Below, piece by piece: positions 6,327 through 59,030 of a DNA stretch of 64,000 nt (its first letter is position 1; each line of letters starts with the position of its first letter). The stretch lies in the NCBI GenBank assembly GCA_965223665.1, contig OZ245011.1, forward strand, positions 1,376,001 through 1,440,000, written 5' to 3'. The notes below the pieces were generated by a model. That model saw nothing but the letters and a program-made list of their open reading frames with translations, searched no databases and was not told the origin of the DNA. This DNA is from Nitrospinaceae bacterium (lineage in GTDB: Bacteria; Nitrospinota; Nitrospinia; Nitrospinales; Nitrospinaceae). The position numbers were made by a program, and so were the translations under genes.

Positions 6327-6339
6327 TGGTTCAAAAGAG

Positions 6340-6633
6340 ATGAAACCCGCCGCAAGAATAAATGATATGCATACTTGCCCTATGGTAAACCCGGGAGGAG
6401 TTCCTCATGTGGGTGGCCCAATTATTCCCCCTGGAAGTCCAACAGTATTGATCGGTGGACAACCCGCTGCGCGAGTTGGAGATATTGCCACTTGCGTCGG
6501 CCCACCGGACACAATTGCTTCGGGTTCATCCACTGTGATGATCGGTGGACAACCGGCTGCACGCATGGGAGATTCTACGGCTCATGGCGGTGTAATCGTT
6601 TTAGGAAATCCAACTGTTCTGATTGGAGGGTAA
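6340..6633 (+). CDS. PAAR spike-tip protein (Afp10)
   Basis: Three PAAR motifs plus HTCP and H residues for metal binding. Confidence 0.95.
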   Translation: MKPAARINDMHTCPMVNPGGVPHVGGPIIPPGSPTVLIGGQPAARVGDIATCVGPPDTIASGSSTVMIGGQPAARMGDSTAHGGVIVLGNPTVLIGG

Positions 6634-6635
6634 AA

Positions 6636-7040
6636 ATGCCAACTGAAAATTCTTTTATTGGAAGAGGTTGGAGCTTTCCTCCAAGTTTCAATAGGGCGAG
6701 TGCCCGGGTAGAAATGACAGAAGGTATCGACGATATCCACAAAAGTTTAGAAATTATATTCAACACTTCCTTGGGTGAGAGAATCATGAATCCCAAGTTT
6801 GGGTGCTCTCTCAAGGATATGGTTTTTGAACCTATTAATACTTCTGTTATAGGTTATATTCAAAACTTAATTGAAACAGCAATACTATACCATGAGCCCA
6901 GAATTGATGCCGAAAACGTAAATGTGGAGTTTGATTCGAACGAAGGAGCTTTGCGAATTAAAATCGACTACAAAGTTCGTGGAAGTAATTCTCGCTTCAA
7001 CTTTGTTTACCCATTTTATATTCGAGAAGCCACAGGTTAA
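6636..7040 (+). CDS. gp25/GPW-like baseplate protein (Afp9)
   Basis: The real start is ATG 6636 (MPTENSFIGRGWSFPP), then DIHKSLEIIF.T.LGERIM.P.FGC, HEPRI, SRFNFVYPFY. The ORF-track extension from 6375 overlaps the PAAR gene. Confidence 0.93.
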   Translation: MPTENSFIGRGWSFPPSFNRASARVEMTEGIDDIHKSLEIIFNTSLGERIMNPKFGCSLKDMVFEPINTSVIGYIQNLIETAILYHEPRIDAENVNVEFDSNEGALRIKIDYKVRGSNSRFNFVYPFYIREATG

Positions 7041-7043
7041 CTA

Positions 7044-18595: not shown

Positions 18596-18623
18596 TCTTC
18601 ATTCATTGCTTGAGAGTCATACT

Positions 18624-24292: not shown

Positions 24293-25708
24293 ATGCAAAA
24301 CTTCGAAGACAACTCAAATTCTACTTCAAAAGCAAAAGGAACTAATGCTGAGAACTTAAAACATGCCTTAGATTTTCTTAAAACCATTATCACGATTCGC
24401 TGTGACGTTTTTTTTAACAGAGTAGCTCAAAATGAATATCCAGATCCCCCATCATTAGAATATTTTGGAGACAACTCTGCTTATTGTAATTTCATTGAAA
24501 AATTTCAACCCACTTTTGATGAATATATCGTTTTCCTTCTAGCATTGGCTCCCCATGTGCAACCTGGGTTTTTAGATTCGGTCATTAAAAAAGGACTGAA
24601 AAATTCAACCGACTTCCCGGAAATCGGAGGGACTCGCGATAACGAAAATCGAATCTTCCTCCCGACTGGAGAAACTGCTTTGTTTATAATTGCCGGAAGT
24701 AATTTTGACATGCGATTTGAAGTTCAAAAAATATTTTCAGGGGATCATTGGTTTGCTCAAAACAATATTTTGAAACTGGAATCCGCAAAGGTGGGTGAAC
24801 CTTTTTACAGTGGGAGGCTCATACTTAATCCTGATCATGTCGAATTGTTTACTATCGGACATATTTCCAGTCCAAATTTTAGTACAACTTTCCCTGCTCA
24901 AGAAATTTCGACAGAATTAGAATGGAAAGATCTTGTGCTTAACCCGGAAGTTCGAGAACAAATTGAAGAAATAAAAAACTGGATTAAATTTCATCCTACC
25001 TTACTAAATCAATGGGGGCTCAAGCGAAAAATCAAACCCGGATATCGTGCTCTGTTCTACGGATCCCCTGGAACGGGCAAGACTTTAACTGCTACTTTGC
25101 TGGGGAAATATACAAATCGAAGAGTTTTCCGAGTTGATCTTTCAACAATAGTTTCCAAATACATTGGCGAAACAGAGAAAAACCTAGCCAATCTTTTCGA
25201 CAAAGCTAAAAGCCGCGACTGGATATTATTTTTTGACGAAGCAGATGCTTTGTTTGGTAAAAGAACCAGTATTAAAGATTCACATGATCGATTTGCCAAC
25301 CAGGAGGTATCTTATCTTTTACAAAAGGTTGAAGAGTTTGATGGATTAGTCATTTTGGCTTCCAATTTCAAATCGAATATGGATGAAGCTTTTCTCCGTC
25401 GTTTTAATTCTATCATTCAATTTCCACTTCCAAGTGAAGAAGAGAGAGCGGAACTTTGGCGGAATTGTTTTCCAAAAGAAGTCAAATTTAAGGACAACAT
25501 AGATTTGCCTAAATTATTAGCAAAATTTGAATTAACTGGCGGGAATATAATAAATGTAGTTCAATACGCATGTTTAAAATCCATCACACGAGGTAAAGAA
25601 AAAAAAGTCCAATTGAACGACGCGTTGCAAGGAATAAAAAAAGAAGTAGAGAAAGAGGGTAAAATATTCAAAAACCTAATTCAAGAAGAATGGATCACCA
25701 AAAACTAA
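24293..25708 (+). CDS. eCIS AAA+ ATPase (Afp15-like)
   Basis: Walker A GSPGTGKT, VDLSTIVSKYIGETEKNL, Walker B LFFDEADALFGKR, DRFANQEVSYLLQ, MDEAFLRR. Confidence 0.93.
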   Translation: MQNFEDNSNSTSKAKGTNAENLKHALDFLKTIITIRCDVFFNRVAQNEYPDPPSLEYFGDNSAYCNFIEKFQPTFDEYIVFLLALAPHVQPGFLDSVIKKGLKNSTDFPEIGGTRDNENRIFLPTGETALFIIAGSNFDMRFEVQKIFSGDHWFAQNNILKLESAKVGEPFYSGRLILNPDHVELFTIGHISSPNFSTTFPAQEISTELEWKDLVLNPEVREQIEEIKNWIKFHPTLLNQWGLKRKIKPGYRALFYGSPGTGKTLTATLLGKYTNRRVFRVDLSTIVSKYIGETEKNLANLFDKAKSRDWILFFDEADALFGKRTSIKDSHDRFANQEVSYLLQKVEEFDGLVILASNFKSNMDEAFLRRFNSIIQFPLPSEEERAELWRNCFPKEVKFKDNIDLPKLLAKFELTGGNIINVVQYACLKSITRGKEKKVQLNDALQGIKKEVEKEGKIFKNLIQEEWITKN

Positions 25709-43758: not shown

Positions 43759-45252
43759 CTATTCCTTATTCATTTTTGTTTGAAGGGGGATGAGCCAGGA
43801 GTCTACATCCTTCACCATATGGTTCAAACCAAATTTTTGGTAAATGGCTCGCGCTTTTTGATAAGCTTCCAGCGCCGCCTCATAATTGTTTTGCCCCTGG
43901 TAAGCGTAGCCGATATTATACCAACCGGTTGCCACCCATGGGTGAGATTCTCCCAAAGTTTGTTTATATATTTCTAACGCCTTTTTATAATACTCAATGG
44001 CTTTGTCAAATTTTTTTTGTCGAATCCAAACTAAGCCAAGGTCACTTAAACTCCATCCGATATGAGGATGAGGCCCTTTAAACAATTTTTCTCTGACTGC
44101 CCTTGATTTCTCATGGTAATCAATGGCCTTATCATATTCCCCCTTGGAATCCCAAGCTTGCCCCAGGTTACTCCAACGAATGGCAATTTTGGGATGCTCT
44201 TCGCCAAAAGTTTTAAGATCGCTGTCCAAAGCCTTCTCATAATACTCAATGGCTTTGTCGTAATCCCCCTTATTATTCCAGGCCCACCCCAGGTTGTTGC
44301 GACAGGTCGCGACATTGGAATGCTCCTCACCATAAGTAGTGAGATCACTCTTCAGCGCTTTTTCATAATACTCAATCGCTTTGTCGTAATCTCCCTTATT
44401 ATTCCAGGCCAAGCCCAGGTTATTCCAATTGGTGGCCACATGCGGATGATCCTCACCATAGGTTTTAATATTACGAGCCAAGGCCTTCTCGAAATAATCT
44501 ATCGCCAGATCGTAATCTCCCTTATGATTAAAAGCCAGGCCCAGGTTGTTCCAACTGGTAGCAATCTCTACATGATCTTCTCCATACGTTTTAATATTGC
44601 AGGCGAAGGCTTTTTTGAGATACTCAATAGCCTTACTGTATTTACCTAACGTATCAAAGATAAGTCCAGTCTCATTCAAATACAATGCATTCTCCGGGTC
44701 CAGTTGGGTAGCCCGCTCAAAATATTTTAGCGCCTTGGCGTAATCGAGTTTATTTTCCGCCAATCGTGCAATTTCGTAAGCCGCTTCGGCGGCCTGCTGT
44801 TTCGATTGGTCCAATTGTTTTTCGGATTTCTCAATATACTTAACATTTTCATCCAACGCCTGTTGGAACAGAGCTTCCGCTTTCTCGGTTTTTCCTTTAT
44901 TTAAATGTTCCTGCGCGTCGGCAATTTGGTCCTCCGGGATCGAAGGCTGCCGCTTTAAAGCTTCTTTGGTTTCCGCCAACAGCTTTTTGGTTTTTTCCAA
45001 ATCCGCTTCAACATCATTCAACCGCGCTTCCGTTAAACTCGAGACTTTTTCCAGCAGAGAAATTTTTTCCTGATCGCGCTGTTGACCTTTTTCATATTCT
45101 ACCTTCAACTGATCCTGAACTTTGCGAACCTCTTTCTCCAGTTCCGCCTTGTGCTCCTGAAGAGAAATGCCGATCTTATTCCCCTGGACGATGTCGCCAT
45201 CGGCGTGAATATTTCCTTCTGCATGAATGGATCTGTTACTCTTACTCATCAT
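43759..45252 (-). CDS. TPR protein (coiled-coil N-terminus, 42-aa kinesin-light-chain-type TPRs), paralogue B
   Basis: Repeated A..WNNLG.AW..KG.YDKAIEYYEKAL......GE.HP units. Confidence 0.92.
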   Translation of the reverse strand: MMSKSNRSIHAEGNIHADGDIVQGNKIGISLQEHKAELEKEVRKVQDQLKVEYEKGQQRDQEKISLLEKVSSLTEARLNDVEADLEKTKKLLAETKEALKRQPSIPEDQIADAQEHLNKGKTEKAEALFQQALDENVKYIEKSEKQLDQSKQQAAEAAYEIARLAENKLDYAKALKYFERATQLDPENALYLNETGLIFDTLGKYSKAIEYLKKAFACNIKTYGEDHVEIATSWNNLGLAFNHKGDYDLAIDYFEKALARNIKTYGEDHPHVATNWNNLGLAWNNKGDYDKAIEYYEKALKSDLTTYGEEHSNVATCRNNLGWAWNNKGDYDKAIEYYEKALDSDLKTFGEEHPKIAIRWSNLGQAWDSKGEYDKAIDYHEKSRAVREKLFKGPHPHIGWSLSDLGLVWIRQKKFDKAIEYYKKALEIYKQTLGESHPWVATGWYNIGYAYQGQNNYEAALEAYQKARAIYQKFGLNHMVKDVDSWLIPLQTKMNKE

Positions 45253-45271
45253 CGTTGTTGCTTATCATTGA

Positions 45272-46582
45272 TTATTTTTTCTCAAGGCGGTCGAGAAAGT
45301 AATCTACTTCCTTTACTATATGGTCCTGACCAAATTGCTGGTACATGGCTCGGGCTTTTTGATAGTTTTGAAGTGCTTTCTCAAATTTCTTTTGCAATTC
45401 AAAAGTATAGCCGAGGTTAAATAAATCCCTCGCAATATCCGGGTGACTCTCGCCATAGTTTTTACGGTCCGTTGCCAAAGCTTTTTCAAAGTACTCGATT
45501 CCTTTTTCAATATTGCCTTTATTGACCAAAGCCGCTCCCAGGTTATTCCAACCGGTGGCCACCCAGGGGTGCCGCTCTCCCAGAGTCTGTTTATAGATTT
45601 CTAATGCCCTCTCATAATATTCCACCGCTTTATCATAATCCTTTTTTCGATCCCAAACCATTCCCAAATCGCTCAAGTTGGATCCAATATGAGCATGCGG
45701 TCCTTTAAACAATTTTTCTCTCACCTGCAAAGCTTTTTCATAATACTCAATCGCCTTGTCATAGTTCCCTTTTTCGCACCACGCTTGCCCCAGGTTGTTC
45801 AAATTGATTGCCACCTGCGGGTCTTCTTCACCATTTAATTTAATGTTGCAGGCCAAAGCTTTTTCATAATACTCAATCGCCTTATCAAACTGCCCCTTAT
45901 AACTCCAGGCGCGTCCCAGACCATTTAAGTTGATGGCAACGTCAAAATCCTCCGCTCCTTTTAATTTTATATTTATATCCAGAGCCTTCTCATGATACTC
46001 AATGGACTTATCAAAAAGTCCCAGCGTAAAATAAAGCGACGCAATAGCAGTCAAATAAACCGGATTGTCAGGAGTCAATAGCGTGGCGCGCTCGAAATAC
46101 TGCAGCGCTTTTGGAAAATTAAGTTTGTTTTCTGCCAACCGCCCGATTTCGTAAGCCGCTTCGGCCGCCTGTTCCGTCTTCTCATCCAGCGCCTGCTGGA
46201 ACAGGGCTTCAGCTTTCTCGGTTTTTCCTTTGTTTAAATGTTCCTGCGCTTCGGCGATCTGGTTGGCGGGAATCGATGACTGCCGCTCTAAAGCTTCCTT
46301 GGTTTCCGCCAAAAGTTTTTTGGTTTTCTCCAAGTCTTCTTCAACATCATTGAGTCTTGCTTCCGTTAAACTCGATACTTTTTCCAGCAGAGAAATTTTT
46401 TCCTGATCGCGCTGTTGACCCTTTTCATATTCTTCCTTCAACTGCGCCCGAACTTTTCGAACTTCTTTCTCCAGTTCCGCCTTGTGCTCCTGAAGGGAAA
46501 TGCCGATCTTATCTCCCTGAATAATGTCTCCACCGGCGTGAATATCCCGCCCGGCATGAATTGATTTTTTATTCTCGCTCAT
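45272..46582 (-). CDS. TPR protein, paralogue A
   Basis: Same architecture; the first ~130 aa are nearly identical to paralogue B. Confidence 0.92.
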   Translation of the reverse strand: MSENKKSIHAGRDIHAGGDIIQGDKIGISLQEHKAELEKEVRKVRAQLKEEYEKGQQRDQEKISLLEKVSSLTEARLNDVEEDLEKTKKLLAETKEALERQSSIPANQIAEAQEHLNKGKTEKAEALFQQALDEKTEQAAEAAYEIGRLAENKLNFPKALQYFERATLLTPDNPVYLTAIASLYFTLGLFDKSIEYHEKALDINIKLKGAEDFDVAINLNGLGRAWSYKGQFDKAIEYYEKALACNIKLNGEEDPQVAINLNNLGQAWCEKGNYDKAIEYYEKALQVREKLFKGPHAHIGSNLSDLGMVWDRKKDYDKAVEYYERALEIYKQTLGERHPWVATGWNNLGAALVNKGNIEKGIEYFEKALATDRKNYGESHPDIARDLFNLGYTFELQKKFEKALQNYQKARAMYQQFGQDHIVKEVDYFLDRLEKK

Positions 46583-49929: not shown

Positions 49930-50289
49930 AAAGTTATTAGGTAAAAAAACCGTCCACTCCGGCCTGGATGCCTGATAAAGCCCCTCTTTTTGATATAACC
50001 TTGCCAAAAACAACGGTTTTCAATAATATTTGGCTCCGGACTTTCTGGAGAGCCGCCTCCAGGTTGGCCTCTACGAGTGGGTTTAATTTGTCCGATTTCA
50101 TGTCGTTTTCTTTCTTTATTAATAGACCTTTGAATTACCCCGAACTAAGCAAAATACAACAAGTTTAAACTTGAGAACCCATGCGCTCCCCCTTTATGAA
50201 GGGGGCTGGGGGGATTTTACCTCCAGGGGTTTTTCAATTTATTCTTTTGCAAAGCTCTCTTTAATCCCGTCCGTCCAGATGGTTTCAAT

Positions 50290-50362
50290 TATTTCTGAAC
50301 GATAAGTGATTAAAACATATCTCTCCCGAGGCTGTCAACATATTTCTGAACGAAAGGTGATT
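50290..50362. promoter_or_regulatory. Duplicated 22-bp operator-like site upstream of tetR
   Basis: TATTTCTGAACGATAAGTGATT (50290-50311) and TATTTCTGAACGAAAGGTGATT (50341-50362). Confidence 0.55.
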
Positions 50363-50402
50363 TATTTTGATTTTTCCACTAACTCTTTGATATAGTGACC
50401 TT

Positions 50403-50984
50403 ATGGGACGCAAAAAAGAGTACAACCGAGCCGAGGTTCTGGAAAAAGCCATGGAACTGTTCTGGCACAAGGGCTATGAAGGGACGCATTTGCAGGAACT
50501 GGTGGAAGTCACCGGCCTCAACCGGTTCGGACTTTATAAAGAGTTCGGCGGTAAAGCCGGGTTATTCGACGAAGCAATGGACCTTTACCTGGGCCAACTG
50601 TCGAACACTGCCAAACCGCTTTCGCGAGAACCACGCGGAATGGGAAATATTCTGGCTTATTACGACGAATTAAAAATGGATCTCTTTCTCCACGGATGCT
50701 TTTTGGCTAATTCGTTGACAGAAAAACACGTCATCGATAAAAAAACCTATGACAAAATGATCCGAGCCATCACGGAATTCCAGAAAGTATTGAAGGACAA
50801 CATAGTCGCGGCGAAAGAAGCAGGCAACTTGAAACCGGGTGTCCACCCGGACAGCCTCATAAAGTTTTTAACCGTGTTTGACCTCGGCATGGTCGTCTAC
50901 GAAATCAACGCCGCCCCCGGCGACAAAGACCAAATCATCACCCACATCAAATCCTACCTCACTTCTCTCATTAAACCTGTATAA
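50403..50984 (+). CDS. TetR/AcrR family regulator (NemR/ComR-like)
   Basis: MGRKKEY....VLEKAMELFW.KGYEGT....L...TGLNR..LY.EFGGK..LF; GCFLAN. Confidence 0.92.
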   Translation: MGRKKEYNRAEVLEKAMELFWHKGYEGTHLQELVEVTGLNRFGLYKEFGGKAGLFDEAMDLYLGQLSNTAKPLSREPRGMGNILAYYDELKMDLFLHGCFLANSLTEKHVIDKKTYDKMIRAITEFQKVLKDNIVAAKEAGNLKPGVHPDSLIKFLTVFDLGMVVYEINAAPGDKDQIITHIKSYLTSLIKPV

Positions 50985-50994
50985 ATTTCACGAG

Positions 50995-51126
50995 TTAATC
51001 TTTCGTCAGCACAATACGATATTTAGGGTTGCCCTGGCGGAGGTGCTCCATGGCGTCGTTGACTTTGCTCAGGGGAAACTCATCCGTCACCGGTTGGATG
51101 TTGTGCCGCGCAGAAAATTCCAGCAT
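50995..51126 (-). pseudogene. Orphan 3' fragment (last 43 codons) of the alcohol dehydrogenase gene at 57438-58451
   Basis: Reads [43 protein letters not shown], versus [44 protein letters not shown] in the intact gene; 10 mismatches in 129 nt. Confidence 0.92.
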
Positions 51127-51632
51127 CCTATAAACCCTATCCACACCATCACCGGAGAAGCGGTAGCAATATATTTTGCAGAGGATTGGATTTCATCCCT
51201 TTCAACATCTTGACATTCCAAATTCGCCTCAAATTTACATGCCTGAGTTTTATTTTTAGAGGAACGCAATTAGACCCTCCCGATTACTGTCGATTTAAAA
51301 TCAAAAAGCCCCTCTCTCGCATGAATAGTTTGCCAGTTTAACCATTTAAGTCTATCCGAATAGACATAAAATATAACTTTTTTATAGGATAACGGTTTTC
51401 TTGAAAAGCGAAAATTCCAAGCCAAACAGGACCCTAAAATCCGATTAGAAGGCGTTTTTTCAATGAATTTCAAGTTATCCCACCTAGAGTGCTAATTGGG
51501 CGAAAACAGATAGTTCTGATATTGAATTAAAAAAAATTGTTTTTACCGAAATTTTTCTTTATTACAATTTTTCGGTGTGGTAATGTATTTACATTCAGAA
51601 GGCCAATCTAAGTTTCGTGGAGGGACGAACTT

Positions 51633-52013
51633 ATGAAAGAGGATTCTGTCACAAGGGCGTATTACCAGGGCATTGCTGATTATGAAGCCGCTCTATTCGA
51701 AACAAACGTTGACCCCGGTTCAGAACCGGACCCCCTACCTTCCTACGAAGACCCAACAAACCTATCATCTCATTACACCACACAACTAAATAGCGACTGG
51801 GAAACTGTCATTTCTGAATTCCACCAAAGCTTACAATCCATTGAACGGGCTGTGCACGAGTTCCATACCATTTATGATTCCACACAAACTCTTGAAGAGT
51901 CTGAACTAGATAATCAACTACAAGGCTACAAAGAATATTTGCAAAATTTATCAGAAACTAACAGCCAACTAATAAAGACCATTAAGGAGTTTCTAGATAC
52001 AGAATCAAACTAA
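51633..52013 (+). CDS. Acidic protein carrying one copy of the precursor's repeat motif (AYYQGIADYEAAL) plus a helical hairpin
   Basis: GGAGG RBS; the N-terminal motif matches AYYQGMADYEASL of the next gene. Confidence 0.75.
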   Translation: MKEDSVTRAYYQGIADYEAALFETNVDPGSEPDPLPSYEDPTNLSSHYTTQLNSDWETVISEFHQSLQSIERAVHEFHTIYDSTQTLEESELDNQLQGYKEYLQNLSETNSQLIKTIKEFLDTESN

Positions 52014-52031
52014 AAATTTAGGGAGGGTGAC

Positions 52032-53501
52032 ATGTCTACAAATGAAGAATTGGAAGCTTATTATCAAGGGATGGCAGACTATGAAGCGTCTTTAGCCGAA
52101 GAGGAAGGCACTGAAGAAGAACTCTCTGCTGAAGAAGAAGCCTACTACCAAGGGATGGCAGACTATGAAGCGTCTTTAGCCGAAGAGGAAGGCGCTGAGG
52201 AAGAACTCTCTGCTGAAGAGGAAGCCTATTACCAAGGGATGGCAGACTATGAAGCGTCTTTAGCCGAAGAGGAAGGCGCTGAGGAAGAACTCTCTGCTGA
52301 AGAGGAAGCCTATTACCAAGGGATGGCAGACTATGAAGCGTCTTTAGCCGAAGAGGAAGGTGCTGAGGAAGAACTCTCTGCTGAAGAGGAAGCCTACTAC
52401 CAAGGGATGACAGACTATGAAGCGTCTTTAGCCGAAGAGGAAGGCACTGAAGAAGAACTCTCTGCTGAAGAGGAAGCCTATTACCAAGGGATGGCAGACT
52501 ATGAAGCGTCTTTAGCCGAAGAGGAAGGTGCTGAAGAAGAACTCTCTGCTGAAGAAGAAGCCTACTACCAAGGGATGGCAGACTATGAAGCGTCTTTGGC
52601 CGAAGAGGAAGGTGCTGAAGAAAGTGAATTTTCACCTTTGAATGACCCAGCTGACGTGATAACTGGCCCTATAACTCGCCCAATCACAAGACCTTTAACG
52701 CGTCCGTTGACACGGCCAATCACAAGACCCATAACACGTCCGTTGACACGGCCAATCACAAGACCCATAACACGTCCGGTGACTCGACCGATCACAAGAC
52801 CTATAACACGTCCGGTAACTCGACCGATCACGAGACCCATAACGCGTCCGGTGACTCGACCGATCACGAGACCCATAACGCGTCCGGTGACTCGACCGAT
52901 CACAAGACCCATAACGCGTCCGGTAACTCGACCGATCACGAGACCCATAACGCGTCCGGTGACTCGACCGATCACAAGACCCATAACGCGTCCGGTGACT
53001 CGACCGATCACGAGACCCATAACCCGTCCGGTAACTCGACCGATCACGAGACCCATAACACGTCCGGTAACTCGACCGATCACGAGACCCATAACGCGTC
53101 CGGTAACTCGACCGATTACCAGACCCATAACGCGTCCGGTGACTCGACCGATTACCAGACCCATAACGCGTCCGGTGACTCGACCGATCACGAGACCCAT
53201 AACGCGTCCGGTGACTCGACCGATCACGAGACCCATAACGCGTCCGGTGACTCGACCGATCACAAGACCCATAACGCGTCCGGTAACTCGACCGATCACG
53301 AGACCCATAACGCGTCCGGTGACTCGACCGATCACAAGACCCATAACACGTCCGGTAACTCGACCGCTTACCAGGCCCGTAACACGTCCGGTGACTCGAC
53401 CGCTTACCAGGCCCGTAACACGTCCGGTAACTCGACCGCTTACCAGGCCTATTATTCGTCCTGCAACCCGACCTCTTACGAGACCGGTGGGACCTTTTTA
53501 G
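52032..53501 (+). CDS. Putative RiPP precursor / repeat substrate: 7 acidic 28-aa repeats + 68 [I/V/L]TRP-type tetrapeptides
   Basis: GGAGG RBS; open 489 codons; variation between repeats is mostly synonymous; lies directly upstream of a RiPP-type radical SAM and an S8 protease. Confidence 0.75.
   Translation: MSTNEELEAYYQGMADYEASLAEEEGTEEELSAEEEAYYQGMADYEASLAEEEGAEEELSAEEEAYYQGMADYEASLAEEEGAEEELSAEEEAYYQGMADYEASLAEEEGAEEELSAEEEAYYQGMTDYEASLAEEEGTEEELSAEEEAYYQGMADYEASLAEEEGAEEELSAEEEAYYQGMADYEASLAEEEGAEESEFSPLNDPADVITGPITRPITRPLTRPLTRPITRPITRPLTRPITRPITRPVTRPITRPITRPVTRPITRPITRPVTRPITRPITRPVTRPITRPITRPVTRPITRPITRPVTRPITRPITRPVTRPITRPITRPVTRPITRPITRPVTRPITRPITRPVTRPITRPITRPVTRPITRPITRPVTRPITRPITRPVTRPITRPITRPVTRPITRPITRPVTRPITRPITRPVTRPITRPITRPVTRPLTRPVTRPVTRPLTRPVTRPVTRPLTRPIIRPATRPLTRPVGPF
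52056..52622 (+). repeat. 84-bp tandem repeat, 7 copies (last partial), encoding AYYQGMADYEASLAEEEGAEEELSAEEE
   Basis: Directly visible; CAAGGGATG(G/A)CAGACTATGAAGCGTCTTT recurs every 84 bp. Confidence 0.95.
52659..53498 (+). repeat. 12-bp/36-bp nested tandem repeat encoding (xTRP)n, core (ITRP-ITRP-VTRP)x17
   Basis: 36-bp unit ATCAC(A/G)AGACCCATAAC(G/A)CGTCCGGT(G/A)ACTCGACCG; 280 codons equals 70 tetrapeptide slots including the first ITGP and last VGPF. Confidence 0.95.
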
Positions 53502-53651
53502 GAAGGAAGTGAGTCTTTAAATCATAGCAACCAGGAGGTGGTACTTTTTAGAAATACAAATAGATAAGATGACTGAAGATCAGGTTTTCAACAAAACATT
53601 TATCAGTCTGAACTCTTGAGCGTATTTCAAAAGAAATGTAATTTTCCACAT

Positions 53652-53709
53652 CCTTTGCTCAATAAGTTCTCTGGACCCAAAGCAGGACGCTTAGGTCCAG
53701 AGCCAAAGG
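53652..53709 (+). promoter_or_regulatory. Intergenic stem-loop between precursor and radical SAM gene
   Basis: CTCTGGACC(53669)...GGTCCAGAG(53702), with outer CCTTTG/CAAAGG pairing. Confidence 0.45.
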
Positions 53710-53902
53710 CAAATATTTTTAATGTTGTCCGAGTTTTAACGATAGAAACTTTTGAACCGGAATCACAAGGCAAGCTTTTATGAACATAACATAGTTACGC
53801 TCTAATGGATTCAGCGTTTATTTTTCTATTTAAAAATACTTTGAGATTAAATAAAACACAATACATAAACTATGTTTAGATGGGTAGGAATCGAGGGGAA
53901 AA

Positions 53903-55756
53903 ATGGATAAGAATAAAGTTTTATTAATTAATATGCCGTTTTCTACTACAAAATGGCCCGTTGTAGGGATTAGCATTTTGAAAGGTCGGCTACTAGAAGA
54001 AGGCATTCCTTGCGACATAAAATATTTTAATTTTGATTTTGCAGAAATGATCGGAATCGATTTATATGAAGAAATCAGTTTAGTACCTCCACAGTTAATA
54101 GGGGAAAGACTGTTTGCACAAGATTTTTTCGGCAGTCAACTGGCCGACCAGGAGCATTATAAGGCGCATCTGCGAAAGGTTTACACGGGACCGGAAAGCT
54201 ACGTGGACAAAATCTTTGGAATTAATAAATTTATAAAACCCTTTTTAGACCGATGCATGCAAACCCTTCCATGGGAGTCCTATAAGATCATTGGCTTTAC
54301 CAGTATGTTTGAACAAAACTTATCTTCAATTTCACTTGCGAGCCGAATCAAAAAACAATATCCGGATAAAACGATTGTATTTGGTGGCGCCAATTGCAGC
54401 GATGAAATGGGAGAAGAGTTACATCGCTCCTTTCCCTTCATTGATATAATTTGCAATGGTGAAGCCGATTTTAGTTTTCCTGAGCTGGTGAAACGAATCC
54501 TAAGCCAAGAATCCTATGAAGAATTACCGGGAGTTATTTATCGTTCCAATGGGGAGTCTATAATAAATCCCGCTACCCCTATGGTTGATAATATGGACGC
54601 ATTGCCTTGCCCTAATTATGATGATTATTTTTCTCAAATGGAAAAATTTCCATTTTTACAGTGCGAAGAATTGCATATGGAAACCTCACGAGGTTGTTGG
54701 TGGGGAGCGAAACACCATTGCACATTTTGTGGATTAAATGCAGAAACCATGGGATTTCGGGCAAAAAGCAAAGACAATGTGATTGACCAAATCAAACAAC
54801 TGACTGAGAAGTATGCGAGCAAATATAATATTGGACGCATTTCCATGGTCGATAATATTCTAGACATGAGTTACTTTAAGGAATTGATTCCGGAACTTAA
54901 GAAAAAGAAGTTTAATACAGAGTTTTTCTACGAAGTGAAAGCCAACTTAAGTGAGCACCAAATCAAAATGATGAGTGAGGCCGGAATCACTTCAGTTCAA
55001 CCGGGAATTGAAAGTCTCAGTACCAACATTCTTGGTTTGATGAAGAAGGGAATCACCAGTTTGCAGAATATTCAGTTTCTAAAATATTGCAAACAATTCA
55101 ATGTTTACCCTACATGGAATATTATTTTTGGATTTCCGGGAGAGAAGCAAGTAGACTATCACCAAACGGTGGAAATGATATATAAAATCACCCATCTGGT
55201 TCCCACTGAAGCAGTCATTCCACTTTCTATGCAAAGGTTCAGCCCCTATTTTATGAACCCGGATCTCTATGGCATTACCAATTTAAGACCGGAAAAAGTT
55301 TATGGTTTAATTTATCCATTTAAAGAAGAACGCATTTCCAAATTAGCTTACTTTTTTGAGTATGAATGTGTTGATGATTTCAAACCTGTTAATAATAAAG
55401 ATGAATTGATGGAAGCTGTCGACTTTTGGCGGGATTGTTATAATAATGGCGAAGGGCTTTACTCAATGGAAATGGATCCGGCAAACATCCTGATTGAAGA
55501 CAGCCGAACGAATTCAAAAATATCGCAAATGATCTTAGATGATGAACAAAAAGCAGTATACGAATACTGCAATACGGTTCGCAGCTTTCCTGCCATTCTT
55601 AAATTTGTTCGAAAGGAATTTCCTAATGATCCGGTAAGAGCAAGGGATGTTAAAGATTTTCTGAACGAAATGGTTGAATTGGATTTAATGGTCAGCGAAG
55701 AGGATAAATATTTAAGCTTAGCCATTTCAAACCAGGAAGAAAGCCGAGCTGCATAA
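53903..55756 (+). CDS. RiPP-maturation B12-dependent radical SAM C-methyltransferase (TIGR03975/PoyC/bottromycin-RMT-like)
   Basis: VLLINMPF....P..GISILK, GFTSMFEQN..S..LA..IK, FGGANC..EMG (cobalamin domain); ETSRGCWWGAKHHCTFCGLN (CxxxCxxC in the family-typical context); DNIL, FYEVKANL, QPGIESLS, NIQFLK, RFSPYF; C-terminal winged-helix/RRE-like region ending YLSLA. Confidence 0.92.
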   Translation: MDKNKVLLINMPFSTTKWPVVGISILKGRLLEEGIPCDIKYFNFDFAEMIGIDLYEEISLVPPQLIGERLFAQDFFGSQLADQEHYKAHLRKVYTGPESYVDKIFGINKFIKPFLDRCMQTLPWESYKIIGFTSMFEQNLSSISLASRIKKQYPDKTIVFGGANCSDEMGEELHRSFPFIDIICNGEADFSFPELVKRILSQESYEELPGVIYRSNGESIINPATPMVDNMDALPCPNYDDYFSQMEKFPFLQCEELHMETSRGCWWGAKHHCTFCGLNAETMGFRAKSKDNVIDQIKQLTEKYASKYNIGRISMVDNILDMSYFKELIPELKKKKFNTEFFYEVKANLSEHQIKMMSEAGITSVQPGIESLSTNILGLMKKGITSLQNIQFLKYCKQFNVYPTWNIIFGFPGEKQVDYHQTVEMIYKITHLVPTEAVIPLSMQRFSPYFMNPDLYGITNLRPEKVYGLIYPFKEERISKLAYFFEYECVDDFKPVNNKDELMEAVDFWRDCYNNGEGLYSMEMDPANILIEDSRTNSKISQMILDDEQKAVYEYCNTVRSFPAILKFVRKEFPNDPVRARDVKDFLNEMVELDLMVSEEDKYLSLAISNQEESRAA

Positions 55757-55796
55757 GATTAAGTTTATTTTTAGAGACAGTCATGGGAGAAAAAAG

Positions 55797-57338
55797 ATGA
55801 GTTCAAAAAAAAGATTTCTGATTGGACACCAAGGCAGTTCCGTGATGCCGGAAAGTTTAACCGAAAGTGTAGATAGTTTCGTCAATGAAAATAAAGATGT
55901 TAAATGCCTCCGCAAATTAAAATCCGGCCAGTGCATTATTGAAATGACTGAAGATCAAGCTGAGAAGCTAGCTCAACAACGCACAGATCTAATTATTGAG
56001 GAAGATCAAGAATTAGAAATGTTTTTCCCGATGCCAGGCCTTTCTCCTTTAGTGTCTGCAGACGAAGAGCTTTCTATTAAATTTAAAGTTGTAAACGAAA
56101 ATAAAAAACCCATCAGCGATGTCACCATTTTTTGTATGGGTAACCAAGTCACTTATAAAGGAAAGACAAATAAAAACGGTCTCGCCACTGTCAGGGTATT
56201 TGAATCGAATTTCAAACACATCATTGCTTCCCCCAGAGCGGATTATTGGTCGCAGGTACAATCTTCCGTAAAAGCTAAAAGCGACAAAGAAATTCAATTT
56301 CAGCTTAAAAAAATTCCAATCAGCGGTGATTATGACTGGGGTCATGTATTGTTGGGAGTAGATAAGGTGAAAGATTCCTTTACCGGAAAGGGTATTAAAG
56401 TAGCCGTTATTGACTCGGGCATTGTAGATCATGAAGATTTAAAAACTGCGGGTGGCTATAATACGTTAGACGGTCAGGACCCTAAAAAATGGGATCAGGA
56501 TGACAACGGCCATGGAACCCATTGCGCTGGAGTCATTGCTTCTCAACAAAATTCCTTGGGTGTGATAGGTGTGGCACCGGAAGCAGAAATATATTCATTG
56601 AAAGTATTTCCAGGGGGCCGATTCAGTGATCTTATGGAGGCCGTAGATTGGTGCATTGAAAATTATATCGATGTGATCAGCATGAGTTTAGGAAGCCGCG
56701 TTCCCTCGAATCTAATTGAGACGTCTCTAATAGAAGCTAATGCTCGAGGAATCACATGTATTGCCGCTGCAGGAAACAATTATGGCAAACCCGTATCCTT
56801 TCCTGCAAAATACGATCATGTCATTGCCGTAGCCGCTATGGGACAACTCGATACCTTTCCGGAAGACAGCGGTCACCAATTAAAAATCGGGAATCATTTT
56901 AGTCCTGATGGAAAATTATTTTCGGCAAACTTCACCAACGTAGGACATGAAATTGATGTATGTGCTCCCGGAGTAGCCATTCTCTCTTCTGTGCCGGGCG
57001 GGTATGCGTCTTGGGATGGAACCTCCATGGCCTGCCCCATTGTTTCAGGTTTGGTCGCCTTAATTCTAGAGGCGTATCCCGAAATCCGGACAGGAGATAG
57101 TCATCAACCTTATTTTGTCCGTGAAATTCTTAAAAGTACTGCAACGGATTTAGGGTTGCCTTTCAACAGGCAGGGAGCGGGTTTACCCAATGCGGAATTA
57201 GCCCTGGAAAATGCCATGCAACGGCTTAGTTATGAAGAAGAAATTGTAAAAGAAAATCGGGAGCGCTTGGAAGCCTTATTACAAATCGCGAATGAAAATG
57301 CCAAGAACATTAAAAGTGCCTTGGCTAAATTACCTTGA
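55797..57338 (+). CDS. S8 subtilisin-like serine protease without signal peptide (prodomain + beta-sandwich insert + catalytic domain)
   Basis: Catalytic triad VAVIDSG, GHGTHCAG, GTSMACP; oxyanion AAAGN; no hydrophobic N-terminus. Confidence 0.93.
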   Translation: MSSKKRFLIGHQGSSVMPESLTESVDSFVNENKDVKCLRKLKSGQCIIEMTEDQAEKLAQQRTDLIIEEDQELEMFFPMPGLSPLVSADEELSIKFKVVNENKKPISDVTIFCMGNQVTYKGKTNKNGLATVRVFESNFKHIIASPRADYWSQVQSSVKAKSDKEIQFQLKKIPISGDYDWGHVLLGVDKVKDSFTGKGIKVAVIDSGIVDHEDLKTAGGYNTLDGQDPKKWDQDDNGHGTHCAGVIASQQNSLGVIGVAPEAEIYSLKVFPGGRFSDLMEAVDWCIENYIDVISMSLGSRVPSNLIETSLIEANARGITCIAAAGNNYGKPVSFPAKYDHVIAVAAMGQLDTFPEDSGHQLKIGNHFSPDGKLFSANFTNVGHEIDVCAPGVAILSSVPGGYASWDGTSMACPIVSGLVALILEAYPEIRTGDSHQPYFVREILKSTATDLGLPFNRQGAGLPNAELALENAMQRLSYEEEIVKENRERLEALLQIANENAKNIKSALAKLP

Positions 57339-57437
57339 GCGTGTAAAACCAGAAGACTCTATGCAATACAAATTTTTTCTCGATACTTTTTCTTTATATC
57401 GTTTTCCAACATCCAGTAACTGTCCTGGCAACAATGA

Positions 57438-58451
57438 CTAACCGTCCTTCGTCAGCACAATACGGTATTTGGCGTTGCCCTGGCGGAGGTGTTCCATGGC
57501 GTCGTTGACTTTGCTCAGGGGAAACTGTTCCGTCACCGGTTGGATGTTGTGCCGCGCCGAAAACTCCAGCATCTTCCTTATGGTATCGGGACTGCCCACC
57601 GGTGAACCGCTCGCCGAGTATTGATTGAACAGCATCGGAAACACATCAATATCCAGCGGATCCATCAGCGCGCCCAACACATGAAACCGTCCACGCGGTT
57701 TCAGCGTACTCATGTAAGCGTTCCAGTCCAATTTCACGTTGACTGTCGACAGCAAAATATCAAAACTTCGTGCCGCCGCTTTGATGGCTTCGACATCCCG
57801 CGAGTTAATCGTATCGTGCGCGCCCAGTTCCAAAGCTTCTTTCGTTTTCGCTTCGCTGGAAGTGAACGCGGTGACGTGACAGCCCCAGGCGTTGGCGAAC
57901 TTGAGCGCCATGTGGCCCAATCCGCCAATTCCAATGATACCGACATGATCGGTTGGGCTCACATCAAATTGCACCAGAGGATTGAACACGGTGATGCCGC
58001 CACAGAGCAACGGACCCGCCGACGCCGCATGCAATCCATCCGGAAGTTTAATCGCACTGGGTGCCTGCACTCGCACCGTATCGGCAAAGCCGCCATGCCG
58101 ACCGACAATGACTCCGGTGGCGGTGGCGCACATGTTATGATCGCCATTCATGCATTGTTCACACACCATACAATAGGCCGAATGCCAGCCGACGCCCACA
58201 TGGTCTCCGACGGCCAAATGCGTCACGTGTTCTCCCACTGCGGAAACGGTTCCGATGATCTCGTGTCCCGGAACAAAAGGAAACGTGGTAATGCCCCAAT
58301 CGTTTTGCAGCATGCTGAGGTCGCTGTGGCAGATTCCGCAGCTTTCGACGGCCACATCGACGTCAAATGGACCGATCGGTCCCAATTCATAGCCAAACGG
58401 TTTTAATTCTTTTCCCGCGGCTTCGGCGGCATAGGCGCGAACGGTCGTCAT
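57438..58451 (-). CDS. ahr: Zn-dependent NAD(P)H alcohol dehydrogenase / aldehyde reductase (CAD family, Ahr/YjgB-like)
   Basis: CGICHSD, PGHEIIG, C..C..C.......[27 protein letters not shown]. Confidence 0.9.
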
Positions 58452-58502
58452 GATACTTTTTCCTTCCTGCGTTTTCGTCGTTTCATTTATTGGGTTAACA
58501 CC

Positions 58503-59030
58503 CTATTCGTAAGTTCCCCGGATCGGATAGTTATTTTCCTGAATCCATTCCACGGTTTCAACCACTTCAACCAGATCGGCCCTATGGAACGGTGTGTTGG
58601 AGATATCAATCAACTGAACGTTTCCTTCTGCGTTCACAGCAAACATGCCCGGCTCCGAAAAGGGTCGATCAGTTTCATCCGGAGAACGCGGATTGGATAT
58701 ATAGAGCCCTAACTCTTTCATTTGTTCAATCGAAAGATCAAAGGCCACGGGAAACGTAAGTCCATGGGCCTCGACCATTTTTAAAGCTTTGGGTTCAGGA
58801 TCGCCGGACACAGCGACCACTTCCGCATTAAATTTTAAAAATTGATCTTTCAGGCTTTCCAGTTTCGTTAAGTATTGTTTACAAATCGGGCAATGGAAAC
58901 CGCGGTATACAAAAACCAGTTGCCAGTTCCCTTCCGTTTCGGGTTTTCCCAAAGTCACCGAACCGCCTTTCACGAGCGGCAGGGTAAACTCAGGAAGTCG
59001 CCCTCCCGATGAAAGTTTTTGCGTCGCCAT
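58503..59030 (-). CDS. AhpC/TSA peroxiredoxin-like protein
   Basis: [33 protein letters not shown]. Confidence 0.88.

Follow-up and report, generated by a model that had tools for sequence, protein, structure and literature searches.

The four genes at 51633–57338 of the window, a 64,000-nt stretch of a Nitrospinaceae contig, probably form a RiPP-type maturation operon and belong to an undescribed multi-phylum family. We give this reading, together with the mechanism proposed below, a probability of about 0.68. Comparative genomics strongly supports the repeat protein as the precursor, the TIGR03975 radical-SAM (rSAM) enzyme as a putative tailoring methyltransferase and the S8 subtilase as its predicted protease. 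The original prediction had proposed these three roles, and they stand; its argument for Thr as a target is weakened, and the leader role it gave to the repeats is less certain.

The co-oriented set of four genes claimed earlier was recovered in full, all on the + strand, from the ORF listing with translations (Table 1). Reading of the sequence placed a purine-rich ribosome-binding site a few bases 5' of the ATG in each gene. Simple promoter and terminator scans at the locus gave scores no better than shuffle level. The precursor and rSAM genes are separated by a 400-nt gap with a stem-loop that appears in both the MFE and the centroid fold and has one compensatory pair relative to the sister genome. 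The stem-loop has no match in Rfam, and the gap as a whole folds unremarkably (z −0.68); the stem-loop may be a candidate processing or attenuation hairpin. Neither a transporter nor an extra tailoring enzyme was found among the neighbour genes tested (TetR, a weak AurF-like match, Zn-ADH and AhpC), in agreement with what had been claimed.

Table 1. Features of the operon, with positions in the window and the basis of each assignment
Feature	Position	Strand	Basis
Small helical protein, 126 aa	51633..52013	+	ORF
Putative precursor protein, 489 aa: acidic motif-repeat domain, then Pro/Arg-rich tetrapeptide array	52032..53501	+	ORF, repeat analysis
Seven acidic 28-aa repeats (AYYQGMADYEASLAEEEGAEEELSAEEE), possible leader-like or pro-piece domain, net charge about −79	52056..52643	+	Repeat analysis
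68 (I/V/L)-T-R-P units without spacers, net charge +68; then VGPF and stop codon	52671..53486	+	Unit count
Conserved stem-loop in the precursor/rSAM gap	53669..53702	+	Alignment to sister genome, fold
Predicted class-B (cobalamin) radical-SAM C-methyltransferase, TIGR03975, 617 aa	53903..55756	+	NCBIfam, Pfam, model
Putative PqqD-like (RRE-type) C-terminal domain of rSAM, residues 519-605	55457..55717	+	Model, weak PqqD match
Predicted cytoplasmic S8 subtilase, 513 aa; family-specific ~190-aa N-terminal region and C-terminal helix	55797..57338	+	Pfam, NCBIfam, alignment

The precursor is the sole copy in its own genome. Its acidic domain carries 7 YYQG motifs at a spacing of 28 residues, and no NHLP or Nif11-type leader family was matched in NCBIfam or Pfam. 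Tandem Repeats Finder reported an 84-nt period with 6.8 copies (95% matches) and a 36-nt period with 21.2 copies (93% matches). The array is built of 68 consecutive four-residue units (67 xTRP and one IIRP), a count that depends on a single assembly and stands against 41 and 35 units in the two orthologues of the sister genome (325 and 268 aa). Position 1 is I in 39 units, V in 21, L in 7 and A in 1; position 2 is T in 67 and I in 1; positions 3 and 4 are R and P in 68/68. When all pairs of 12-nt units were compared, the T/R/P positions differed by 4548 synonymous and 67 non-synonymous codon changes, with 4 Thr, 6 Arg and 4 Pro codons in use. Because synonymous differences so far outnumber non-synonymous ones, the repeat is maintained by selection at the protein level, beyond the DNA level. 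At 489 aa the protein far exceeds the usual size of a RiPP precursor, which is a point against the RiPP reading.

The charges of the two domains are matched. In the three Nitrospinaceae precursors the leader/core charges are −79/+68, −51/+41 and −38/+35, and over 11 precursors, which are related sequences and not independent samples, the correlation is r = 0.98. Since leader acidity scales with the cationic charge of the core, the data point to acidic repeats that behave like a neutralising pro-piece. Such a role was not considered in the earlier reading.

The rSAM enzyme matched TIGR03975 over its full length with 645.6 bits against a cutoff of 281.85 (residues 6-608 on model positions 1-606 of 606), so that the HMMER search proposed for it gave the family predicted. 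The signature SRGCWWGAKHHCTFCGLN lies at residues 262-279, and its cysteines C265, C273 and C276 (Cx7Cx2C) are invariant in 12/12 aligned relatives. Pfam Radical_SAM matched with E 1.3e-15, and no match to the Pfam B12-binding domain was obtained at E ≤ 0.01. With phmmer the PDB sequence matches were TokK (residues 82-235), CysS and OxsB. The structural model (pLDDT 86.9) gave OxsB, TokK, TsrM, CysS and MgmA as best Foldseek hits (E 1e-14 to 1e-16), with alignments of more than 500 columns to TokK, TsrM, OxsB and CysS. An N-terminal cobalamin-binding domain is thus predicted at the level of fold and sequence. At the C-terminus a weak PqqD match (17.4 bits against a cutoff of 46, E 0.0031, residues 545-592) and a modelled domain of three strands, three helices and two strands suggest a putative RRE. 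In a FastTree phylogeny of 90 rows, the rSAMs adjoining Pro-rich repeats formed one 12-row clade (support 93) and the YYQG-type rSAMs an 8-row clade (support 99). In a sister rSAM clade, the adjoining S8 proteins have (P-I/V-R/Q)n repeats at their own C-terminal end.

The protease matched Pfam Peptidase_S8 (PF00082) with E 4.4e-51 and has the catalytic residues D206, H239 and S410. The alignment shows D206 and H239 to be invariant, and all 4 rows that extend to the Ser motif contain it. The enzyme has no signal peptide or membrane anchor: no hydrophobic run within its first 60 aa exceeds 4 residues, and Kyte-Doolittle(15) peaks at 0.4. The PatA/PatG cyanobactin protease model (TIGR03895) scored 54.9 bits against a cutoff of 421.05. 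The type VII secretion mycosin model (TIGR03921) also fell below its cutoff (140 bits against 278.75), and the signal and anchor of that class are missing.

Full-length relatives of the S8 protease, at 38-86% identity, were found in 12 loci. The original prediction had named rSAM/S8 pairs without a repeat ORF as the finding that would count against it. A Pro-rich short-period repeat ORF lies beside S8 in 10/12 of these loci, in Planctomycetota, Chloroflexota, Nitrospirota, Thermodesulfobacteriota and Acidobacteriota; of the other two contigs, one starts inside the rSAM gene and one, of 3.4 kb, has the most distant S8. A TIGR03975-like rSAM gene is present in 8/12. No B12 rSAM gene lies within the fetched stretch of the S8/repeat loci L111, L112 and L113, so methylation would not be obligatory for the family. 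An extra SPASM rSAM gene, absent from the window operon, occurs in related loci. A thirteenth locus, reached by way of the motif, comes from a Geobacter MAG (L132); it encodes the small protein, a precursor, a SPASM rSAM, a B12 rSAM and an S8 protease. The acidobacterial locus L110 (Pyrinomonadaceae), demonstrably of RiPP type by its genes, has the same S8 (49%) and rSAM (43%) on either side of a Cys/Pro-rich repeat ORF. It also encodes a SagD-type YcaO (334 bits vs 219), a TOMM leader-binding protein (71 vs 36.9), a SagB dehydrogenase (127 vs 78.4) and a PRMT-like methyltransferase.

The cores of the relatives have in common Pro and an aliphatic residue, usually with Arg, and include xRPP repeats (VRPP, IRPP, FRPP). 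Thr is missing from most of them (VRPP, PPVR/PPIQ, CIIRPP, LLIRPP), which weakens the earlier argument that three of the four positions, Thr included, are of residue types that this enzyme class methylates. Judged from these comparisons, such gene sets occur in at least six bacterial phyla, and the window operon is one member, not unique to its genome. A precursor gene that adjoins a predicted tailoring-enzyme gene, the two conserved as an ensemble, is the criterion for a RiPP gene cluster, and the locus has this arrangement. Our search of the literature gave no description of this repeat/rSAM/S8 family. Taken together, these gene sets resemble a so far undescribed family of peptides that are made by the ribosome and then chemically modified.

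We infer the following mechanism, in which array methylation and its site, enzyme docking, the pattern of cleavage and any biological activity are all proposals. The 489-aa protein would be the ribosomal precursor. In each of its 68 Pro-containing units the cobalamin rSAM, acting repeatedly along the array, would C-methylate an unactivated carbon. The aliphatic residue and Pro are the likeliest targets; Arg and Thr are less probable. The acidic AYYQGMADYEA domain would neutralise the strongly cationic array and make it harmless to the producing cell; it probably also recruits the enzymes, most likely by docking on the PqqD-like domain at the C-terminus of the methyltransferase. The cytoplasmic S8 protease would next cleave off the acidic domain, and the array itself may be cut as well. 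The outcome would be methylated cationic peptides rich in Pro and Arg, either one long or many short, resembling the proline-rich antimicrobial peptides of animals, which a serine protease also frees from stored, inactive pro-forms.

Alternatively, the methylated protein could stay intact in the cell as a diblock polyampholyte, with one acidic and one cationic polyproline-like block. It might then serve as a scaffold, condensate former or binder of nucleic acid or polyphosphate, and the part of S8 would be limited to its regulation or degradation. The operon contains no exporter or immunity gene, and none is conserved across the related YYQG-type loci, so that a secreted antibiotic role is unsupported; hydrophobic segments and signal peptides are absent from each of the four proteins. 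These observations suit an intact protein, as do the protein-sized precursor and its matched blocks of near-neutral overall charge. However, YcaO, SagB and TOMM leader-binding genes, the marks of pathways to peptide natural products, accompany the same S8 and rSAM clade in acidobacterial relatives. Within the order, 2/41 genomes searched have the S8 type, a patchy spread typical of accessory biosynthetic genes. The core changes fast (ITRP, ITPR, VRPP, xERP) while the enzymes persist, and a dedicated protease is kept in every locus. We regard an intact polyampholyte as rather unlikely.

The conservation of the Tyr-rich motif raises another question, namely which part of the precursor is the functional one. 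The 126-aa protein has a single AYYQGxADYEA motif (here AYYQGIADYEA) in an N-terminal helix, followed by a disordered linker and a helical hairpin; RAYYQGIADYEAAL is common to it and the precursor repeats. Its model (mean pLDDT 74.6) has helices at 5-24, 42-84 and 89-125. No Pfam or NCBIfam family was matched. Among 5.8e9 proteins it fell in only 2 clusters at 90% identity, and as a profile query it retrieved 43 representatives at E ≤ 1e-3. In Brocadia (L105) and Geobacter (L132) a homologue directly precedes the precursor gene; in Bryobacteraceae (L028) one lies upstream of the rSAM gene. In the second copy of the repeat the 11-residue motif is invariant among Nitrospinaceae, Brocadia and Desulfuromonadales. 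The AYYQGMADYEA module also occurs in metagenome proteins that end right after the repeats, without a Pro-rich core. Such core-less proteins were found on at least 20 metagenome contigs, often with NRPS, PKS or thioesterase genes as neighbours; none of these contigs yielded a TIGR03975-like gene. Because core-less versions adjoin NRPS/PKS genes in this way, the module, as far as gene context tells, is not simply the leader of the TIGR03975 enzyme. The seven repeats claimed as a 7-fold leader are there, and a classical leader role for them is only a possibility.

The Tyr-rich repeats might therefore be the functional or modified part, either as a repeated core or as a binding module for another pathway, such as one for NRPS products, with the Pro-rich array as an accessory tail. 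The repeat-only proteins favour this, together with the presence of the motif in the small protein and its much stronger conservation across phyla than that of the Pro-rich part. The sister genome argues otherwise. Its two copies share the small protein (99.2%) and S8 (99.2%) and are near-identical in the motif region, whereas their cores differ (ITRP vs ITPR). Their rSAMs are 86-100% identical in the last ~85 alignment columns, which hold the putative PqqD-like domain, and 25-69% in columns 1-550. Core and rSAM catalytic part thus change together, in what the alignments indicate is a natural cassette swap, and the catalytic part does not follow the motif. Moreover, rSAMs of the same and the sister clade adjoin Pro-rich repeats with other N-terminal regions or none, and protein-level selection on the array is very strong. 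That the Tyr-rich repeats are the functional or modified part is distinctly improbable.

Very improbable, too, is an intracellular pro-toxin for abortive infection or stress suicide, in which a neutral pro-form would be kept in store until phage attack activates the protease, which would release a translation-blocking Pro/Arg peptide in the producer itself. This reading is pure inference. A cytoplasmic protease, a pro-form-like architecture and the lack of both exporter and immunity gene would fit it, and a PADLOC subtilase model matched S8 with E 1e-34. That model is a generic subtilase model, however; PADLOC gave no meaningful defence-family match for the other three operon proteins, and the neighbours tested showed no sign of a phage or a defence island. 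That the repeat ORF is a non-functional slippery-DNA expansion or an assembly artefact beside two enzymes (long tandem repeats misassemble easily, several related contigs break inside the array, and there are mirror ORFs on the opposite strand) is for practical purposes refuted by the comparative data, namely the 4548:67 ratio, the ORF kept in the sister genome although the number of units differs and one unit type is permuted, the analogous ORFs across phyla and the intact ribosome-binding sites.

The RiPP-type reading can be compared with several known systems. Like the proteusins, the operon has an enzyme of family TIGR03975. The polytheonamide core is a unique 48-49-mer, whereas the core here is 68 repeated tetrapeptides behind a 7-fold repeated leader region. 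Proteusins have an NHLP or Nif11 leader, which the window precursor lacks, and the operon has no epimerase, dehydratase or N-methyltransferase and just one radical-SAM gene. By leader family and rSAM epimerase (NCBIfam, Pfam and operon genes) it is not a proteusin operon. PoyB and PoyC are assigned as TIGR03975-type B12 rSAM C-methyltransferases (PMC11285071). In the polytheonamide pathway unactivated carbons of a ribosomal peptide are C-methylated iteratively and many times, a chemistry that is only proposed here.

BotRMT1-3 of bottromycin are B12 rSAM enzymes too. Bottromycin is set apart from the window operon by its follower peptide, single 8-residue core and YcaO macroamidine. BotRMT1-3 methylate the side chains of Val, Pro and Phe in a ribosomal peptide (PMC11285071), and these residue classes overlap with those of the window core. 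Acidobacterial relatives carry SagD-type YcaO, SagB and leader-binding proteins as in TOMM/linear azole (SagBCD-type) pathways, and there these genes adjoin Cys/Pro-rich repeat precursors. Both YcaO and dehydrogenase are missing from the window operon, the tested neighbours include no YcaO, and the core lacks Cys and any Ser-rich or other azole-forming pattern. The YcaO and a fitting core are thus confined to those relatives, and the window operon was not assigned to the class.

Like the window precursor, those of the fungal dikaritins repeat a tetrapeptide core many times. Kex2, the dikaritin processing protease, is a subtilisin-like S8 enzyme. Ustiloxin UstA has a 16-fold Tyr-Ala-Ile-Gly core that is cut into units before/after tailoring (PMC11285071). 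Dikaritins are eukaryotic products of the secretory pathway with spacer/recognition sequences between repeats, and their tailoring is oxidative cyclisation; the window array has 68 units without spacers, and radical methylation is predicted. The triceptide-type WprB/WprP2 system is bacterial and likewise pairs an rSAM gene with a neighbouring serine protease gene; its two enzymes act on a precursor that is cut uniformly (PMC12957482, available portion). As that portion describes them, WprP2 is an S9 protease and not S8, WprB is a SPASM-type enzyme forming a cyclophane cross-link where B12 methylation is predicted here, and triceptides have no acidic repeat domain.

The cathelicidin Bac5 has repeated Arg-Pro-Pro triplets and is stored as an inactive pro-form from which elastase releases it (PMC7019029). 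Proline-rich peptides bind the ribosome exit tunnel via cationic side chains (PMC7136475). Bac5 and Bac7, both made as cathelicidin pro-forms, are not homologous to the window system; these peptides are unmodified, 40-60 aa long and secreted. Their cationic Arg-Pro-Pro-like repeats resemble the related cores, which are literally xRPP, and the window array, unlike them, is bacterial, up to 272 aa long and accompanied by a dedicated predicted methyltransferase.

The operon consists of four closely packed ORFs on the + strand, which by ORF calling span 51633-57338, and a purine-rich ribosome-binding site can be read before each of them. They encode a small protein, a 489-aa precursor, a B12 radical SAM (rSAM) enzyme and an S8 protease that has no hydrophobic segment at its N-terminus. 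The original prediction had described four co-oriented genes including a repeat protein, this class of rSAM enzyme and a signal-less subtilisin, and the observation is confirmed. In the precursor, acidic repeats carrying an AYYQGMADYEA-type (YYQG-type) motif come first; their DNA has a period of 84 nt (6.8 copies, 95% matches). A linker of 9 residues leads to an array of 68 uninterrupted four-residue units (67 xTRP and one IIRP), followed by a VGPF tail. Position 1 of the unit is I in 39 cases, V in 21, L in 7 and A in 1. The array's DNA repeats with a period of 36 nt, not 12, and codons differ among the three sub-units. When all pairs of units were compared at the T, R and P positions, there were 4548 synonymous versus 67 non-synonymous codon differences; it is therefore at the protein level that the tetrapeptide is maintained. 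ORFs antisense to the repeat are mirror images of it and were not taken as genes.

The precursor is single in its genome. No NCBIfam model matched it or the small protein, and the latter matched no Pfam family either. A word-index search with the leader region scored nothing, its 8000 candidates being swamped by low-complexity matches. Many precursors, in the window and at the related loci L021, L022, L105 and L110-L113, end in an aromatic residue (GPF, TF, PPF, CYF, LCF, PCF or EYY), which may be a processing or recognition mark.

The rSAM enzyme matched TIGR03975 ('RiPP maturation radical SAM C-methyltransferase') end to end with 645.6 bits against a cutoff of 281.85, bearing out the enzyme class originally predicted. 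Its cluster cysteines C265, C273 and C276 are invariant among 12 aligned relatives. Sequence matches in the PDB were the cobalamin radical-SAM enzymes TokK, CysS and OxsB, and the closest folds to the structure model (pLDDT 86.9) were OxsB, TokK, TsrM, CysS and MgmA (Foldseek E 1e-14 to 1e-16). Residues 519-605 are modelled as three strands, three helices and two strands, a layout suggesting a PqqD-like peptide-recognition domain, for which the sequence gives a sub-threshold PqqD hit (E 0.0031). Complex prediction of residues 500-617 with the first two motif repeats, run without controls, scored 0.00 and weighs neither way. The protease is an S8 subtilase (Pfam E 4e-51) with catalytic D206/H239/S410, and its scores for PatA/PatG and mycosin models are far under the cutoffs. 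Its first ~190 residues belong to no Pfam family, yet they are conserved among its relatives.

Coordinates and repeat cores of features in the window and at related loci (L numbers; unprefixed positions are those of the window)
Feature	Position or locus	Strand	Remarks
Gene 1, small protein		+	126 aa; N-terminus RAYYQGIADYEAAL
Gene 2, precursor, motif repeats	residues 9-204	+	seven 28-aa repeats AYYQGMADYEASLAEEEGAEEELSAEEE
Precursor C-terminus	53487-53498		aromatic end
Conserved hairpin	53669-53702		one compensatory pair; in 400-nt gap ahead of rSAM gene
Zn-dependent dehydrogenase and AhpC-type peroxiredoxin	57438-59030	-	directly downstream of operon
Two adjoining TPR-repeat proteins	43759-46582	-	497 and 436 aa
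Extracellular contractile injection system gene set	3880-25708	+	Pfam
Phage_base_V	4572-6326		Pfam; part of injection set
CIS tape-measure protein	17147-18595		Pfam E 1e-94
eCIS core domain	18582-24209		Pfam; in 1875-aa protein
AAA ATPase	24293-25708		Pfam; injection set
Second rSAM copy	G000:C1:4053149-4054969 = L024 7138-8985		window's genome
Second related system	L023 (G001:C13:2300000-2314000), 4962-10045	-	also L048, L053, L043
Genes preceding operon	L109 1078-3745; L132 3609-6389
S15 peptidase gene	L026 12809-13813		Blastocatellia
Examples of repeat-only motif proteins and their partner proteins	L137 3224-4230; L157 5475-6291; L150 4835-5245		adjoin NRPS, PKS or thioesterase genes
Repeat core	L104, G001 (sister genome)		ITPR
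Repeat core	L105, Ca. Brocadia		PPVRPPVRPPIQ
Repeat core	L106, Anaerolineales		PPVR; at contig start
Repeat core	L108 (contig shared with L025), Thermodesulfovibrio		VRPP; at contig start
Repeat core	L109, Desulfuromonadales		xTRP alternating with xERP/xDRP; two rSAM genes
Repeat core	L110, Pyrinomonadaceae		CRPP, CNPP, CI(I/V)RPP
Repeat core	L111, Acidobacteriota		TIPTLPRITIP-like
Repeat core	L112, Acidobacteriota		PPLLIR
Repeat core	L113, 'Deltaproteobacteria' MAG		CRPCIPPP
Repeat core	L114, Acidobacteriota		CNPP/CRPP

In the window's genome the rSAM query had 11 matches, only one other at E<=1e-60. This second copy is TIGR03975-like, 36% identical and adjoins a TetR gene, and neither a repeat ORF nor a protease lies nearby. 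Among the other 40 genomes searched in the order, 28 contain enzymes of its type (34-40% identity), a spread suggestive of a different and conserved role. Of the 41 genomes searched, the rSAM type of the operon itself (at least 54% identity) and its S8 protease were found in 2, the window's and that of a congener, G001.

Two copies of the operon occur in G001, one on a 13.5-kb contig (L021) and the other on a 4.0-Mb contig (L022). In L021 there are 5 motif repeats and 41 xxRP units, of which 38 are xTRP, and the rSAM enzyme shares 93% identity with that of the window; L022 has 4 motif repeats, 35 permuted (I/V)TPR units and an rSAM enzyme just 54-57% identical. Between the two copies the small protein and the S8 protease are each 99.2% identical, and the rSAM enzymes are 86-100% identical over the last ~85 alignment columns and 25-69% over columns 1-550. 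Aligned as DNA, the copies match at 92.7% from upstream through the leader and at 97-98% in the distal flanks; neither the core nor the 5' part of the rSAM gene aligns. Since the window's downstream synteny is common to both copies, they may be alleles of a single locus in different strains and not paralogues. In either case, the catalytic part of the rSAM enzyme changed along with the core, and the motif region, small protein, protease and rSAM C-terminal domain stayed constant. No other single finding argues as strongly as this cassette swap that the Pro-rich array would be the rSAM substrate and that the C-terminal domain would serve a constant partner.

Relatives were sought more widely from both enzymes. 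Among the 79 closest rSAM loci in the species genomes examined, full-length S8 proteases of the operon's type were present in three. When an S8 alignment served as the query, 26 loci were returned. Twelve contain the full-length type (38-86% identity); of these, 10 have a Pro-rich ORF built of short-period repeats and 8 have a TIGR03975-like gene. The original prediction would have been refuted by rSAM/S8 pairs lacking any similar repeat ORF; of the two S8 loci outside the ten, L115, with the most distant S8 (38%, on a 3.4-kb contig), had no repeat, and L107 begins inside the rSAM gene, where a repeat ORF cannot be judged. A whole-ORF periodicity screen of the 79 rSAM loci, blind to part-ORF or contig-cut repeats, flagged no giant repeat; the repeats that it missed were recovered by a windowed screen and ORF reading. 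A scan for the motif added one complete locus, in a Geobacter MAG (L132), with a small protein, an xRPP/xKPP precursor, a SPASM rSAM, a B12 rSAM and an S8 protease.

A FastTree phylogeny was built from 90 rSAM sequences, excluding ORFs shorter than 400 aa, masked bases and matches over less than 450 residues. The enzymes adjoining Pro-rich repeats formed one 12-row clade (support 93). Two of its rows are unlabelled: one is a Blastocatellia locus, likewise with a Pro-rich precursor, the other a Bryobacteraceae locus with a homologue of the small protein. YYQG-type enzymes formed an 8-row clade (support 99). The sister clade adjoins S8 proteins of 611-667 aa with (P-I/V-R/Q)n C-termini and an acidic tail, found in G001, Sulfitobacter, Roseovarius and an Actinomycetota MAG. 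Because both clades lie near Pro-rich repeats and S8 proteases, this TIGR03975 branch is tied to both. In the second related system (L023), an S8 protease with a C-terminal (P-I/V-R/Q/S)n tripeptide array stands directly before a TIGR03975-like rSAM gene (38% versus the window's), followed by a 138-194-aa protein and a ~200-aa protein, both without a family. It was not found in the window's genome and is present in G001.

Some related loci carry further genes. At L109 and L132 two further genes lie ahead of the operon. One encodes a 712-741-aa protein with a Pro-rich N-terminus and an HELGH zinc-protease-like motif, the other a 172-179-aa protein; no Pfam or NCBIfam family matched either. At L026 an S15 X-Pro dipeptidyl-peptidase (CocE/NonD) gene lies at the cluster end, where others have S8; the locus stops after it, and an S8 gene may lie beyond.

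At the Pyrinomonadaceae locus L110, rSAM (43%) and S8 (49%) homologues flank a Cys/Pro-rich repeat ORF, and the neighbours over curated cutoffs are a SagD-type YcaO (334 versus 219), a TOMM leader-binding protein (71 versus 36.9) and a SagB dehydrogenase (127 versus 78.4); a methyltransferase with a PRMT oligomerisation subdomain is also present. A SPASM radical-SAM enzyme of no assigned family is an extra gene in four YYQG-type loci. The S8 protease and the Pro-rich repeat recur across such varied loci, thus the pair is constant and the tailoring set variable, as is typically the look of RiPP families. We put the probability at about two in three that the operon belongs to a new RiPP-like family. 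The defining features of the family would be an S8 protease, a Pro-rich repeat precursor whose N-domain is acidic and repeated, and a tailoring set that varies, here a B12 rSAM C-methyltransferase. The comparisons support the core of the original RiPP interpretation and correct its details. No published account of the family was found in the literature searched, which covers subscription journals thinly, so one may exist. The RiPP radical-SAM C-methyltransferases listed in a 2024 review of RiPP methyltransferases are bottromycin, polytheonamide and thiopeptide enzymes (PMC11285071).

The original prediction also argued that three of the four positions of the unit are residue types methylated by such enzymes. 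Pro and an aliphatic residue occur in all cores and Arg in nearly all; Thr occurs in the Nitrospinaceae and Desulfuromonadales cores and is absent from the VRPP, PPVR/PPIQ, CIIRPP and LLIRPP cores. The argument is weakened by Thr, which is not conserved. Being always present, the aliphatic residue and Pro rank as the likeliest candidate methylation sites, and B12 radical-SAM methylation of Val and Pro has a precedent in bottromycin (PMC11285071).

The N-terminal domain and the array carry net charges of -79/+68 in the window and of -51/+41 and -38/+35 in G001. Over 11 precursors of all groups, with a uniform boundary rule, leader and core charge gave r = 0.98; the sequences are related, and the value is descriptive only. 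In Desulfuromonadales, xERP units leave the core half self-neutralised, and the leader is less acidic to match. This charge match fits a neutralising pro-piece. ProBac5 offers a parallel: it has repeated Arg-Pro-Pro triplets, is kept as an inactive pro-form and is released by elastase (PMC7019029).

AYYQGMADYEA is invariant in the second copy across three phyla, and in the small protein it is modelled as a helix. A motif scan of metagenome contigs gave 26 loci (L134-L159), where most motif proteins have only 2-6 motif repeats and end without a Pro-rich part. Some have an N-terminal 'EEWIFTL..TGE..KVE..SGER.ELSEEEY' domain, which also heads acidobacterial Pro-rich precursors, and partner proteins with this domain carry two motifs. 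The four longest contigs carry NRPS, PKS or thioesterase genes, one with a distant S8-like gene and none with a TIGR03975-like gene; at the Bryobacteraceae locus L028, an NRPS gene, a small-protein homologue and an rSAM gene occur together. Since motif proteins without a core stand beside NRPS/PKS genes, the motif module exists independently, which qualifies the leader role first proposed for the repeats. For this operon, leader or pro-piece is still their best reading, with the rSAM C-terminal domain, the S8 N-terminal region and the small protein as candidate binding partners.

The small protein is modelled as three helices. Its family has 43 representatives at E<=1e-3 among 1.84e9 proteins, of 90-200 aa with two motif-like helices and a conserved WKEYLQ...KQL...IEESI hairpin; a 6-row profile found the Brocadia locus only among the species genomes. 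Our guess is a chaperone or adaptor for the motif domain. Its best ESM Atlas match (0.87, eukaryotic Med21 clusters) was dismissed as helical-protein noise.

Neighbours of the operon are a TetR regulator, a weak AurF-like protein, a Zn-dependent dehydrogenase and a peroxiredoxin. No transporter is among the tested neighbours, in agreement with the original prediction, and no exporter or immunity gene is conserved across the operon and related loci. The dehydrogenase and peroxiredoxin genes are missing from both G001 copies, though other flanks align with the window, and the difference looks like an insertion or deletion at the operon edge. An Rfam scan of 50000-58500 gave no match at E<=1 and no riboswitch ahead of the rSAM gene, promoter and terminator counts were no higher than the shuffled-sequence level, and the gap holding the hairpin does not fold unusually as a whole. 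The locus is contained in four sequencing runs, all DNA and from one study. The contractile injection genes lie 26 kb upstream, and a link to the operon was rejected as the injection system is not conserved near the related loci examined. A defence-system reading was dropped, PADLOC giving only a generic subtilase model and chance-level matches.

If the RiPP-like reading holds, this is a new RiPP class in at least six phyla of mostly uncultured or slow-growing bacteria, including nitrite oxidisers, anammox bacteria, Acidobacteriota, Geobacter relatives and Nitrospirota, with a new precursor logic: a repeated domain for recognition or neutralisation, joined to tens of cores without spacers. With their matched catalytic domains, the ITRP and ITPR cassettes would offer a natural experiment on site choice by cobalamin rSAM methyltransferases, a hard-to-study enzyme class. 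The motif in core-less proteins near NRPS genes hints at a wider, unrecognised natural-product role of the module, and methylated, protease-resistant Pro/Arg peptides would be attractive ribosome-targeting scaffolds.

It is conceivable, if rather unlikely, that the product is an enzymatically poly-C-methylated cationic polymer and not a small peptide. Templated by the ribosome, it would form a polyproline-like rod that reaches about 270 residues and bears at least 68 added methyls, and would be the longest repetitive RiPP core known. The tandem acidic repeats would serve both as neutralising pro-piece of a charge-neutral pro-form and as multivalent dock for several enzyme molecules, and swapping of the core and catalytic-domain cassette between strains would diversify the polymer. 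Such a polymer would be a bacterial, chemically hardened counterpart of the proline-rich antimicrobial peptides of animals.
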